Below, one piece after another: positions 1-9,000 of a DNA stretch of 47,572 nucleotides; positions within the stretch are counted from its first letter, which is position 1, and every line of letters begins with the position of its first letter. Source of the stretch: a virus (Duplodnaviria; Heunggongvirae; Uroviricota; Caudoviricetes); IMG/VR virus record IMGVR_UViG_651053023_000010; one strand, 5' to 3'. The position numbers are program-made.

Positions 1-3000
1 CTACGATAGCCGCGCATTCAACATGGCTACCTGTTCGTCGTTCATGTCATCAATCCACATACCGTAAATTTCATACACCATCTGCGCAGTTTCATGCCCC
101 ATCTGGCTGGCTATAAATGCCGGGTTCGCTCCTGCCGTCAACAGCCAGCAGGCAAATGTATGCCGCGTATGGTACGGATTACGGCGGCGAATACCAGCAC
201 GTTTTACTGCTGCATTCCACCTTGCCCCCAAACTGCTTACCGAGTAATAAGGTTTCTGTTTTCCGTTACACACCCTGGGCATGAAAACAAAATGCAGTTT
301 TTGCTTTTCGGTTCTGCCGTACTCCCGATGATAAAAGGTGATTTCGCTTTTGCGATGATGCCCGGTCAGTTTGTATTGCTCCTTCAGTGCTTCAAGAGCA
401 GGCTGCAGTAATATTACCGTCCGGATCCCGGCATTTGTTTTTGGGGGACCGAACATATCCAGTATCGTCAGGTTTCTTCTGACATTCACAGTTCCCTTCT
501 CGAAATCCACATCCTCCCACGCCAGAGCTGCCAGTTCCCCGTGACGAAGCCCGGAGTAAACGGCAAATTTCCACAAGTTCTGGCTCTGTCCTTTTTCACT
601 TTCCATTAATGCATTGAATTCTGTTTTAGATAACGGATCTGGCTTTATTCTGTTTCGCTGTAATTTTTTTACTCCTTCAAATGGTTTGTTTGATATAAAT
701 CCCGACTGATAAGCAAAACGTAACAAAGAACAGAGCAGGGCGATATAGTTATCAACTGTGCGCACTGTTCTTCCTTTTTTGTTAGATCTTGGATTATCCA
801 GGTAAAGCGTTTCTCCATGCAACAGTTCATTCCGGTAATTTAAGATATCGCTATAACGAATATGTGATATCGGGGTACTTTCAGAAATTATTATCCTGAG
901 TGTTTTTAATTGTGATTTCGTTTTCTTCATTGTGTTTGTTGTTAACTCTGTCTCTTTAATTTTTGCCCAGATATCACAAAGCTCCCCGAATGTTTTTATG
1001 ACCCTCGTTGTCACCATTTTTGCCCCAGTGCTGGACTGGGGAAAACGTCTTAAATACTCGAATTCGCCGGAATTGATTTCGTGAACTATCAACGCTCTTA
1101 AATTCCCGGCCTTTTTAATATTACTGTTAGTAACCTCCCAGCCTTTCAATGTTTCCCGACATCGTTTTCCTCGAAACATGAACCAGATGCGAATGTATTT
1201 ACCCCGAATCTCGACACCTGTTGGTAATTTAGACATATCATGAGTCTTTGATAAACTGATTTATCTTCGGATAGTTGTACCAGATAATCCCTCGCTTGCT
1301 GTCTGGCTTACCTAAAGGAGATACTCGTTTGAAGTGAAAGCCTTCCACCCAGCAATTCTGACGGTATGCTTCAATTTGTCTGGCCCCCAGACCAGTACGA
1401 AGCATCAGACCGTATTCAACCATCCACTCTTCATTAAAAATCACTTGTGCCATCGCATCACCTCTGGCGGGCGACAATATTAGACTGAAATTGACGCCCG
1501 ACGTTGATTATTAATAATCAGCTATGAAGTTTTAATTTGAATACAATGCAATTCACGAGGACTGAAGTTTCTCGCAATTAAAATTTATCAGTTTTACTTT
1601 CTGCTCTCTGGAAACGCCTGCTTCTTTTTTCCCTGAGAGCATTTTTTCGCATTCCGATTTGGTTAACTTTGTTTTTGAGTACCTTGTCCAGCTGGTAGGA
1701 GAACCACCTTCCTTTTCAATAGTGGCGGTGATTTTATACATGAACACCTCCATTATTATTTCCAGTAGTTCGTTTATTCCATCTTTCGAGTGCTTCTTTT
1801 TCACTTCCACCATAGCCGGTTCGGGATTCGCATCCGTTACACTTCGCGCGGTAATATCCTGAAATGGCTTTCACCGTTACTGATGGACAACCACAAAAAG
1901 GGCATGGTTTGACTTTTTCATACCGCATTGTCTTTTCTCTCATAAAATAAATTTTTTTGATGGCGGTGGGACTACACCGACAAAGTAAATATCAGGAGCC
2001 GATATATTCTGGTTTCATATCTGTCAGTGTCGTTTTATACGCCTCATATAATTCACCCAGATGTGGCCGAGCAGCATTCAGCGTATTTTCCAGAGCAGTA
2101 AATTTTTGTTCTGCTTCCGGATCACCTGATGAAGGCAGGTCATTTATCATCTTCTCAATACGGGCAATAGCATTGAGACGGTGATGACGCTGAACCACTT
2201 TTCCTTTAAGTTCCGTATAGAGAGCGCCAAGTGTATTTTTATGCTCTTCCACTTCCTGCCGAAGTGCTGTTGTTTCTCCGGTGCTTTGTGCCTGCTCAAT
2301 ACGTTCACGGAAAGCACTGATCCAGTTTTCCCCGGCATCCTGCTCAATAATTGTTGTTTCACGTTCCGCATGGCAGGCGGATGTGTTTTTATGTTCCTGA
2401 ACCGGATTAATGATTTTTTCCTGTGGTTCGTCCAGTTCGTCCCGGGTGTACACTCCAAGAATCACTTCAGGGCAATAAAGGCGCGCCCAGCGTTTGAGTG
2501 CCAGATAGGCAAGCTGCTGACGAGGATCATCGGCCCATAATGTTGAGTTACGTGTTCTGGCCTGCGCCAGAAGTAACTCCAGTACGCGTGGTTTGCTCTC
2601 TCCGCGTAGTGTTGCCTGGACGCGAACTCCAATCCCGTTTTCATCGGCCAGCTTCCAGCCAGGTACACGATATTCTTTCCCTTTGTCGTTCTTCCTGATT
2701 TCAAATTTCCCGATAATTTTTTCCCACGGCCCGAACCAGTCATATTCAATACGCCCGGTTAGCGGCCCACGAGTACTGATTACGGCATTAACCAGTTGCG
2801 CTTCATATCCGAGCACACCATTCACAACGAAAGTTTTCTGAGCTACTGCGTAAGGGTTCATTTGCCACTGCATCGCCTGCATGGTGATGGCCATGCAGTC
2901 TGATGGATTTCCTCGGAGGTGTTCCGGTACAGTAGCCATGCCGGAAGCCATTACCTGAGAAAACGTCTGAATTGCAGCCAGAGACTGAGGGCTGAAAACC

Positions 3001-6000: not shown

Positions 6001-9000
6001 CAGGAAAATTAGTTGCAATAGCTTTAAAATAGTTGCTCAGTTTTTTACCTGACTTAACGATCAGGTAGTCCAGAGTGGCACAGGTTGATTCAAAATCGTC
6101 GCTTGCCCACAGGACGACGTCAGGCTCACCGGATGATTTTTTCGCTTTCCGTAAAAGGAAGAGTGGTTTTGTGCTCATTGTTTTTTAACCTCAACTCAGA
6201 TTAAAATTACTGCGAGTGATGAATAAATGTCCCAGGTTCTTCACTCAGGCCTGCACACAGTGCAGGCTTTCTTTTTTTCAGATTTCACCGTTTAATTTCA
6301 TTGCGATCAGAGTTGCCAGAAATCCGGCTTTTTTTTCTGCGGGCAGATTCTTTCCGATGTGAACCAGGCTCATTTTTGTGACACCTTCATCAAGTGTTTT
6401 TACGTTGCCTGATGGACCATCGATATCAACCACAGTGAATGGGGTTTCTTTATTTTCTGTTTTAATTACGTAGCCAATGCGCTTTCCTTCCAGATTCACC
6501 TCGTGAACAATGTCATCGGTAGTTACAACAGTGGTTTCATAATTGGTAATCATGTTTTTCTCCTTAATTAAGGTTGAGCGAATCCCTGCCATTTCTGGCA
6601 TAAATTCAGTTTCGAATAGTCAATTAATTAAAGTTCGTGTGCCATCTGGTCTTTTTCGGCACAAGCTTCACTGCAATATTTTCTCGGTTCGTCTTTTGAT
6701 AAAGTCCCGTGCATGAAGTGAAGCATTCTTTCAATAGCTTTGCTTTCTTCAACGTCTTTTTTGCAAAGGTGGTAAGCACATTTTATTTTCTTAGTCATCA
6801 CCATGACTCCGCCTTTACAGGTAAACCATCACGACCGAGGAAGACTTTAATCATGCGGTCAGTAATGCATGTTTTTGTGGTCAGGTTACGAATATAAAGT
6901 TTTCGCTTTTTAATATTGTTTGCCGAGGCAATATATGTCCGGCCTTCATGAAGAACATAATCGCCAGGAGTCACACACTGACGTGGTATTTCATCAGTTC
7001 CAAAGTGATGAGCAATCATAATTATCTCCATTTTTACAAATGAACTTTGTCGATGCGGTGCCTGGTGCCTCCAGGTGACTGTAACCAGTTAACAATTACA
7101 GTCGGCTTTCCCACCCAAACCAATAAGGACTAACATGACTTTTAACTGTGCCGCGTGCGCTTAGCCGCATTCACCGCATCACAAAATTCACTTTAAAAAG
7201 GGCGGACATCAGCCGAACTTCAAGAAAAAAACTGATGCCGCCAGGATACACACAGCAATGTCGTTATTTACAACCGGAGGCGCACTCCCACCATTTAAAT
7301 TTAACAGACAAGACCGACTCTTTATGGATATCGGAAATGCGCCTTCGTGTTGTGCCCAGTTTTATTTCACCACCTCCGGGCTTTGGTGGTTTCTGCTATA
7401 CCCCTACAGCGAGAATATTGAATTAATCTAAATAATGGATTAGCAAGTATTTCTGGCAAGCCAGCGACGTGCGCCCGTTTCAGTTTTGAATGTCTTGCTT
7501 TTGGTATAAGTCATGGCGGTGAACGTTCCATCCTGGTTGGGGAACACGCCACATACCAGAGATTCGTTGTTGCCAAGATCGATAGTATCCATGTTGACCT
7601 CATTTCCCCTTAACGCCGGGTGGCGGAACTAAAACCTACAGCGCCGTGCTGCTTCTGTAATAATATTAGTTATGTTCATATTGATGATCAATAGAAATAT
7701 GCATTTTGTTGATAAAAATGTACTATCCTAATGAAATTTTTAGTGTTTTTTTTGATAAAAAGTAAGGCGGGGCGGGCGGAGGGGACAAAAAAAACCGCCA
7801 AAAATGGCGGTTTAGTTACGAGGTGGTGGGAGCTATTTCTTCATGCGTTTTTGAGCTGCCAGCATATTTTCAAATGCTTCTTTGTAGAGTTCATTCTGAC
7901 CTTTAAGTCTTTCGATTAGTTTTGCTTTTTCTGATTCGGGAAGGATATCAAAAAGATCTAGTAAATCAGCTTGTTGCTTGTTAACCATCCGCCAACCTTC
8001 GCCTTCGAAACTTTCGTCATAAGTTCCTGAGGAACGGACGTAATTCATCAGATCAGCTAAATCAGGCCTCAACTCTTCAGGCTTAACTCTTAGTAATACA
8101 GCGAATTTTAATGCCGCATCAGTATTAAGTGGAGCCTTTCCGTTGAGATAATGGCTAACCGCAGATTGCGCCTCAAAACCCATTAGCTCGGCAGCAAGCT
8201 CCTGAGTCAGTTTGAGCTCTCTTTTTTTTGCATCCCAGATTGCGCGCAGACGTTGCGTAGCTTCCGGCGATGCGATTTCTTCGCGTTTTCTTCTCATACC
8301 ACCATCTTATGAATACAGTTCATAATCTCAAACTGATATAGGTATTGATCATTTAAATTAGTATGGTTAATATTTTGGTGAGCCTTACTAAGGTGACCCT
8401 TATGACATTAGATGAATATTTGAAAAAAAATCGTGTACGACAGTCTTGTTTGGCCGCGCTGGCTGGTTGTTCGCAATCAATGATTAGCCTCGCTGCTACT
8501 GGACGTAGTCAGTTAAGCCCTGAAAAGGTATTGCGTATCGCAGAGGCTACGAATTTCGAGGTTACACCTCATGAACTCCGGCCTGATATCTACCCGAATC
8601 CGACCGATGGTTTACCTGTTGGATGTAAGGCTAACACACAAAATACACAGGAGTTGATTCATGAAAATCAGGCATGAGCACATCGAATCAGTGTTGTTAG
8701 CCCTAGCCGCTGAAAAAGGGCAGGCGTGGGTCGCTAACGCAATTACTGAAGAATATCTGCGCCAGGGGGGCGGCGAATTGCCCCTGGTACCAGGCAAGGA
8801 CTGGAACAATCAGCAGAATATCTATCACCGTTGGTTGAAAGGTGAAACGAAAACGCAAAGAGAAAAAATTCAGAAGCTGATCCCAGCAATTCTGGCAATC
8901 CTTCCGCGCGAGCTGCGTCACCGACTCTGCATCTTCGATACCCTGGAACGCCGTGCATTACTGGCGGCGCAGGAAGCGTTGAGTACGGCAATTGATGCGC

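Follow-up and report, generated by a model that had tools for sequence, protein, structure and literature searches.

The recombination module between positions 1992 and 6178 of IMG/VR record IMGVR_UViG_651053023_000010, a 47,572-nucleotide stretch of Caudoviricetes DNA analysed here at full length (the window), is very probably a matched RecET cassette of the Gifsy type carried on the scaffold of a Rac RecE. Two intact open reading frames (ORFs) occupy the minus strand at exactly the limits reported in the first-pass annotation: recE (3056..6178), encoding an exodeoxyribonuclease VIII of 1040 amino acids (aa), and a gene for a RecT-family annealase of 350 aa (1992..3044), which is co-directional with recE and lies directly downstream of it. 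The first-pass annotation had taken the module for a mosaic in which a RecE-like exonuclease is combined with a different, possibly mismatched annealase. The module is indeed a mosaic relative to the Rac prophage of E. coli K-12, and its annealase belongs to another RecT subfamily, but the annealase was not exchanged alone, as the nuclease domain and recT form one cassette. Both proteins are essentially ordinary full-length orthologues of a known RecET pair, which is of the Gifsy rather than the K-12 type. The pair is an already known kind of system, and its proteins are already present in RefSeq under correct names.

The mosaic boundaries are evident from the blastn comparison with K-12 Rac (NC_000913), which gave 93-95% DNA identity over window positions 1-1982, 4372-5473 and 5882-7414, and no match over 1983-4371 and 5474-5881. 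The larger non-homologous block extends from RecE codon 603 to a point 10 nt beyond the stop of recT and defines the exchanged cassette, nuclease domain plus recT (1983..4371, no strand assigned), of 2389 bp here versus 1654 bp in K-12. Its breakpoint within RecE (codon 602) comes after '...CSDETGE', which both proteins have in common, some 20 residues ahead of the point where the crystallised K-12 nuclease fragment starts. Alignment by segment gave a corresponding pattern at the protein level. The N-terminal region of RecE (aa 1-602; 4373..6178, minus strand) is K-12-like, with 93.9% identity to K-12 RecE over aa 1-99 and 92.3% over aa 240-602, so that the proposed close match of the N-terminal two-thirds holds for these two segments and breaks down in the variable patch between them (aa 100-239; 5462..5881, minus strand; no DNA match at 5474-5881), where identity falls to 22.9%. 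The C-terminal part (aa 603-1040) is as divergent as had been supposed, with 18.5% identity and 170 residues opposite gaps.

Since the large block spans both the nuclease domain and recT, the exchanged unit is the two together. As read from these alignments, the mosaicism relative to K-12 Rac consists of the same RecE N-terminal allele apart from one patch, followed by a different, co-inherited nuclease and recT cassette. A swap of the annealase alone, which would leave a RecE-like exonuclease beside a foreign and possibly mismatched annealase of different specificity, draws on the lack of BLASTP similarity between the window RecT and K-12 RecT and on the K-12 character of two-thirds of RecE. 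It is contradicted by the breakpoints, as the non-homologous block takes in the whole nuclease domain, and by the occurrence of the same nuclease and RecT side by side in over 20 phage records and some 150 IMG/VR loci. Moreover, full-length RecE can be replaced genetically by the nuclease domain alone, according to the literature (review PMC11611040). A swap of this kind is considered very improbable and, with the annealase not swapped alone, the pair is not mismatched.

The variable patch represents a second mosaic segment relative to K-12; its allele is the same as that of Rac-SA53, and it shows about 35% identity to HK225 RecE aa 292-525. The junction at RecE codon ~602 is used repeatedly, as a 96-99% identical cassette is joined, in IMG/VR contigs, to RecE N-terminal regions of 42-96% identity to that of the window. 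Of 5426 complete E. coli genomes, 1751 contain the K-12 cassette and about 190-250 that of the window. DNA resembling the RecE N-terminal region was found at 9883 places in 4755 of these genomes (median 2, up to 9 per genome), far above the approximately 2100 places that the K-12 and window cassettes occupy together; the N-terminal region is therefore evidently attached to many other things.

The kinship of the cassette is with the RecET pairs of Gifsy-1 and Gifsy-2 (S. Typhimurium STM2632/STM2633), HK225, mEp237 and SPN3UB. The nuclease (438 aa) displays 50-52% identity over 97-98% of its length to the RecEs of these elements and to those of FSL SP-016, PHB10, Klebsiella phages and pAEv1818, and the gene directly downstream of each such long nuclease encodes a RecT of about 370 aa, which is about 48% identical to the window RecT except in pAEv1818. 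The same long nuclease and long RecT are thus adjacent in Gifsy-1, Gifsy-2, HK225, mEp237, SPN3UB and others, including Rac-SA53, which does not bear out the suggested mismatch. In common with the window, the Gifsy type has a long RecE with an N-terminal region 45% identical, an insertion of about 170 aa and an ELNDFDxRRLEAL tail (the nuclease being ~51% identical over 98%), and the same gene order and position beside xis/int. The window RecT is 48% identical over 97% of its length to the RecT of Gifsy-1 and HK225; the Gifsy RecTs measure 369-371 aa, with the core ~53% and the C-terminal domain ~50% identical to those of the window, and this C-terminal domain, ending in ...DMKPEY, shows 44-50% identity when compared by itself. 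The differences from the Gifsy type are that identity is only ~45-52%, that the N-terminal part of the window RecE is the K-12 Rac allele (92-94%), and that the element is of the Rac type and located at ttcA. The Gifsy pair is functional in Salmonella by genetic evidence: the Gifsy-1/2 recET orthologues suppress recB recombination defects when de-repressed by mutation, according to PMC3121763 and PMC8496262, which cite Figueroa-Bossi 1997 and Lemire 2008.

Rac-SA53 is a still closer relative, sharing the Rac backbone and the ttcA attachment site, and its RecE is 95% identical to that of the window over the full length, long nuclease included. Its RecT differs, being 367 aa long and 63% identical, with the core and part of the C-terminal domain of another allele and the last ~63 aa identical.

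The family assignment of RecE is evident from a Pfam Exonuc_VIII (PF06630) match at aa 2-182 (E=1.3e-67), a match to the PD-(D/E)XK-like family DUF3799 at aa 853-1017 (E=1.2e-13), and a score of 1379.9 bits against the exodeoxyribonuclease VIII equivalog of NCBIfam (NF007259), which passes the cut-off of 1269. The 350-aa protein matches Pfam RecT (PF03837) over aa 30-209 with E=3.4e-43 and 147.9 bits against a gathering threshold of 24, matches phrog_561 with E=8e-145, and belongs to a 99% identical cluster of 855 members named 'RecT family recombinase [E. coli]'. Its reported unlikeness to K-12 RecT and lambda Bet was confirmed, as BLASTP gave no significant alignment with either (best E=0.37 for K-12 RecT; E=0.022 over 34 aa for Bet), and no NCBIfam model, including those of the K-12-type RecT (NF007351 / TIGR00616), matched it even at E<=1. 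The absence of NCBIfam and BLASTP matches indicates that the window protein is a member of the RecT family and not an orthologue of K-12 RecT. Since K-12 RecT also falls in PF03837 (E=9.7e-56), the two proteins are distantly related within a single family. A sequence search of the PDB with the window RecT returned nothing at E<=1, and Foldseek, run with an AlphaFold2 (AF2) model of low confidence in the core, gave no significant match (Redbeta 7UJL, E=0.31).

In records of phages and genomes, many homologues of the window RecT subfamily are still called 'enterohemolysin' or 'enterohemolysin 1', in conflict with the strong RecT match. These names, together with 'RecT family enterohemolysin', are what speaks for the 350-aa protein being an enterohemolysin. 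The Pfam match speaks against it, as do the place of the gene directly after recE, in the slot of the single-strand annealing protein (SSAP), and its current NCBI name, 'RecT family recombinase'; a hemolysin is hardly credible here. The hemolysin name is reportedly a legacy of a cloning study of the 1990s. A literature search on Rac-SA53, and on enterohemolysin together with RecT, returned nothing useful.

The K-12 Rac pair (RecE/RecT, b1350/b1349; nuclease structure 3H4R) has in common with the window the prophage family, the gene order, the flanking genes, the Pfam families Exonuc_VIII, DUF3799 and RecT, and the catalytic residues. It differs in that the nucleases are 18.5% identical, that of the window being 170 aa longer, in that the RecTs are unalignable by BLASTP, and in that K-12 RecT has a short acidic tail where the window RecT has a helical C-terminal domain of 110 aa. 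Lambda Red (Exo/Beta) resembles the window pair in its presumed functional logic, the combination of a PD-(D/E)XK 5'-3' exonuclease with a Rad52-like annealase. Its order is reversed, bet preceding exo, and its Exo is a 226-aa trimer with neither the N-terminal region nor the insertion; BLASTP between the pairs gave only E=0.8 (Exo) and E=0.022 (Bet), and the Pfam families YqaJ and Bet were not matched by the window proteins.

The divergence of Gifsy-1 from the window is similar in the three modules (N-terminal region 45%, nuclease ~51%, RecT ~48%), while K-12 has only the N-terminal region in common with Gifsy-1 (41%). The nuclease domain of K-12 RecE instead shows 48-53% identity to small nucleases that stand alone, namely those of phiV10, Tyrion, SPN9TCW and Yersinia phage 29.18. 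The even divergence of Gifsy-1 and this kinship of the K-12 nuclease suggest, by parsimony, that the long arrangement is probably ancestral and that the K-12 cassette is an import or replacement.

The nuclease domain of the window RecE (aa 603-1040; 3059..4372, minus strand) is a long PD-(D/E)XK exonuclease domain of the Gifsy type. Its best match in the PDB by phmmer is E. coli RecE (3H4R, E=5.6e-6), which is also the top Foldseek match (E=4e-8) of an AF2 monomer model of RecE aa 597-1040 with a mean predicted local distance difference test (pLDDT) of 73.7; Cas4, MGME1 and RecB-type nucleases follow. The span of catalytic residues covers 3398..4156 on the minus strand, with H675 at 4154-4156, D912 at 3443-3445, D925 at 3404-3406 and K927 at 3398-3400. 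These residues align with H652, D748, D759 and K761 of K-12 RecE, and the columns are invariant in 10 of the 10 nucleases aligned. Upstream of the domain, a CxxC...CxxC motif at window positions 4531-4578 (RecE aa 534-549) is conserved with K-12, just before the acidic linker to the nuclease domain, and may represent a zinc ribbon.

The additional length of the nuclease lies in a helical insertion of about 170 aa (RecE aa 697-867; 3578..4090, minus strand), as delimited by alignment and AF2 model. It contains internal repeats, xEYNAxLP three times and SGTxxQL twice, and is modelled as about nine helices with pLDDT mostly 80-94. By alignment its position is that of the 665-698 rim loop of K-12 RecE, a region described as disordered loops which project from the rim of the channel and presumably capture double-stranded DNA (review PMC11611040). 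The orthologous insertions of Gifsy-1 and HK225 gave Pfam SAP matches below the gathering score (E=0.0035-0.007), and Pfam searches with the isolated insertion and the isolated RecT C-terminal domain of the window gave only noise (SAP_new25 0.062, Ish1 0.14). These values allow the suggestion that the insertion is a SAP/HeH-like DNA-binding element. The domain ends in a conserved tail (aa 1023-1040, ELNDFDxRRLEAL; 3059..3112, minus strand), a candidate protein-docking motif that is nearly invariant among long nucleases, is of low pLDDT in the monomer model, and is absent from the aligned K-12-type and VBM1 nucleases.

The window RecT comprises an annealing core (aa 1-215; 2400..3044, minus strand), a linker disordered in the AF2 model (aa 192-238) and an all-helical C-terminal domain (aa 240-350; 1995..2327, minus strand; AF2 pLDDT about 87-90), for which a role as partner-docking adaptor is proposed below. 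The supposition that nuclease and annealase families form fixed, co-evolving pairs fails for the cores. A window-type RecT core is paired with K-12-type nucleases in phiV10, Tyrion, Yersinia phage 29.18 and SPN9TCW, and the Aeromonas phage pAEv1818 combines the long nuclease with a K-12-like RecT core (31% identity, E=9e-27) that is unlike the core of the window. Judged from these combinations, nuclease and annealase core families assort freely. In phiV10, the K-12-type RecE nuclease and the window-type RecT core are fused in gp37 (locus L090, 3116-4876), a protein of 586 aa annotated as 'putative recET'.

The C-terminal domain of RecT behaves differently from the core. A survey of 50,697 phage records recovered it in 21, in 20 of which it occurs with the long nuclease while the remaining one ends at the record edge; conversely, all 20 phage records with a long nuclease contain the domain, and nowhere among the surveyed records does it stand beside another nuclease type. 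It is found on three different N-terminal domains, each directly after a long RecE: the window-type core, the K-12-type core of pAEv1818, to which it is fused (37% identity, E=8e-14), and a phrog_3657 domain. The last of these is a 414-aa protein directly after a long RecE in IMGVR_UViG_3300011855_000048 (locus L121, 5308-6552), which carries the C-terminal domain (44% identity, E=6e-28) behind a first part of 282 aa assigned to phrog_3657 ('unknown function'). These 282 aa had no match in Pfam, NCBIfam or the PDB, and hhalign against the RecT alignment revealed no relationship. Homologues of phrog_3657 stand beside RecE/Cas4-like exonucleases in Gordonia, Mycobacterium, Acinetobacter and Clostridium phages under labels such as 'RecE-linked protein' and 'ssDNA binding protein'; the family is probably an uncurated annealase family. 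In Vibrio phage VBM1, the nuclease and core are of the same subtypes as in the window (45% and 47%) but the insertion, the tail and the C-terminal domain are missing.

Exchange of the core between a conserved nuclease and a conserved C-terminal domain is also seen among close relatives. Between the window and Rac-SA53, recE is ~96% identical at the nucleotide level and the last 190 nt of recT are 97% identical, against 40-75% for the remainder of recT. When 152 loci (151 from IMG/VR and the window) were clustered at identities of at least 90% for the nuclease, at least 80% for the C-terminal domain and at least 80% for the core, as many as seven core clusters were seen together with a single nuclease cluster and a single C-terminal-domain cluster. 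Of the pairs of loci whose nucleases are at least 90% identical, 381 have a core of no more than 65% identity but a C-terminal domain of at least 85%; the reverse pattern, a conserved core with a diverged C-terminal domain, arose only through one truncated contig and one other locus.

These associations suggest that the RecT C-terminal domain may be a partner-docking adaptor for the long nuclease, a physical contact for which the arguments for and against are close to balanced. In the proposed mechanism, the 110-aa domain would dock on the 170-aa insertion of the long nuclease, on its ELNDFDxRRLEAL tail, or on both, by analogy with the docking of the lambda Redbeta C-terminal domain on lambda Exo. 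In lambda, the small helical C-terminal domain of Redbeta binds the nuclease and SSB (review PMC11611040; PDB 6M9K for the complex with Exo). The C-terminal domain of RecT and the enlarged surface of the long nuclease would then be the most likely seats of pairing specificity. A wider proposal, put forward more tentatively, is that pairing specificity is carried by portable accessory modules and not by the catalytic or annealing cores, the adaptor having moved onto at least three unrelated annealing domains. A 2026 study distinguished classes of RecT C-terminal architecture, including helical bundles, and suggested their coupling to SSB or to the exonuclease (PMC13490951). A rule that the tail follows the nuclease was also considered for the K-12 type and rejected: the RecTs of Tyrion, phiV10, Yersinia 29.18 and SPN9TCW carry a different small C-terminal domain in place of the K-12 RecT tail, so that the rule cannot be extended to that type.

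The domain might instead be an adaptor for a host factor, such as the C-terminal tail of SSB or another replisome protein, or an oligomerisation module, its association with the nuclease being a matter of lineage history. Gene shuffling of Rec modules among lambdoid phages is documented and heavy, according to a 2025 survey that explicitly left the shuffling of partner-interaction domains unanalysed (PMC12315714), yet the C-terminal domain keeps to one nuclease type throughout the phage records surveyed. Furthermore, the K-12-type RecT works in the same host without such a domain, and the domain has remained with the nuclease while the annealing domain was replaced at least three times. A host-factor or oligomerisation role is accordingly regarded as unlikely, though it retains appreciable weight.

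Several points weigh against the docking reading and the evolutionary scheme around it. The C-terminal domain and the long nuclease could occur together through common descent, or through a host factor that they share, such as SSB, rather than through direct contact. Core swapping could stem from conserved flanks, namely the nuclease 3' end and the C-terminal domain, on which double crossovers could rely for homology. Nor do the counted pairs of loci represent independent events. The fast evolution of the insertion and the C-terminal domain, described below, fits relaxed constraint as well as co-evolution. The AF2 models are of low confidence in the RecT core and over the initial 66 residues of the nuclease fragment, the resemblance of the insertion to SAP falls short of the Pfam threshold, and the ancestry of the cassettes is argued by parsimony on few genomes only.

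The ratio of non-synonymous to synonymous substitution rates (dN/dS) is 0.01-0.36 in every module of RecE and RecT, so all modules are under purifying selection. The dN of the insertion and of the RecT C-terminal domain, the fastest-evolving parts, is about ten times that of the catalytic nuclease half (nucB) and the annealing core. The nucleotide identity profile against loci L058-L061 changes gradually, without abrupt two-patch mosaicism in the insertion and the C-terminal domain, as would fit faster evolution rather than discrete swaps.

These values also bear on the possibility that the two genes no longer function and are remnants of a prophage in decay. K-12 Rac is defective and cryptic, and deleted versions of the locus exist, among them truncated copies and the pseudogenes of E. 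coli E300010. In the latter (locus L008, 5001-6582), a deletion derivative of the cassette joins a recT 3' fragment to a recE 5' fragment, leaving two pseudogenes, which indicates that the locus decays in some lineages. (H177, a match covering only the 3' part of recT, was considered as a possible new combination and ruled out as a deletion with pseudogenes.) Against decay in the window, intact versions of both ORFs are present there and in no fewer than 150 genomes, every module has a dN/dS well below 1, no catalytic residue has been lost, and the window is nearly collinear with the 47.5-kb isolated phage genome described below and with Rac-SA53; absence of function is therefore improbable.

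The remainder of the window supports the same placement. Its beginning is the left arm of a Rac-type prophage, where the minus strand carries genes for an integrase (1-1236), an excisionase (1238-1477), a DUF1187 protein and a Lar/RalR-like protein (1734-1943), then recT, recE and homologues of racC, ydaE and kilR. The stop codon of recE and the start of recT are separated by 11 nt, so the two genes look like a single co-directional operon, in which translational coupling is plausible; a putative Shine-Dalgarno sequence for recT, GGAAGGA (3049..3055, minus strand), read from the sequence, stands immediately 3' of the recE TGA stop. The locus is the early-left recombination module of the element and very probably encodes a matched two-component recombinase, in which RecE would act as a 5'-to-3' exonuclease on double-stranded DNA and RecT would anneal the 3' single strand so produced to a complementary one.

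Several E. coli genomes of porcine origin contain a 100% identical copy of positions 1992-6178. In E. coli O139:H1 P15-25, the identical locus adjoins ttcA, the Rac attachment site, and the Prokaryotic Genome Annotation Pipeline (PGAP) labels the genes recE and 'RecT family recombinase' within the same limits as the ORFs of the window. The isolated phage genome PP818812 (47.5 kb) covers 92% of the remaining window at 97.9% identity, and Rac-SA53 (KU052037) covers 88% of it at 94.5%; from this coverage the element looks like a complete phage and not a remnant, apparently a Rac-family prophage that integrates at ttcA. The record PP818812.1 shows the element to be able to form phage particles. 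It is entered in GenBank as 'Actinobacillus phage vB_Apl-pPE4' (47,508 bp), with Actinobacillus pleuropneumoniae as stated host; the host assignment looks doubtful, the record being 98-99% identical to the E. coli Rac-like prophage of the window over more than 90% of the sequence compared.

For annotation, the outcome is a correction rather than a discovery, the pair being an ordinary, matched RecET of the Gifsy type. Several cassette alleles fit onto the same N-terminal part of RecE, and the RecET of laboratory K-12 is one of them. For recombineering and direct cloning, E. coli offers full-length RecEs with the same N-terminal region but quite different nucleases and annealases, which could be compared. 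The interest that remains lies in a testable hypothesis on where RecE-RecT specificity resides, the RecT C-terminal domain, the nuclease insertion and the nuclease tail being candidates for the still unmapped interface. If the adaptor is indeed portable, any SSAP could be re-paired with the long nuclease by grafting the adaptor onto it.

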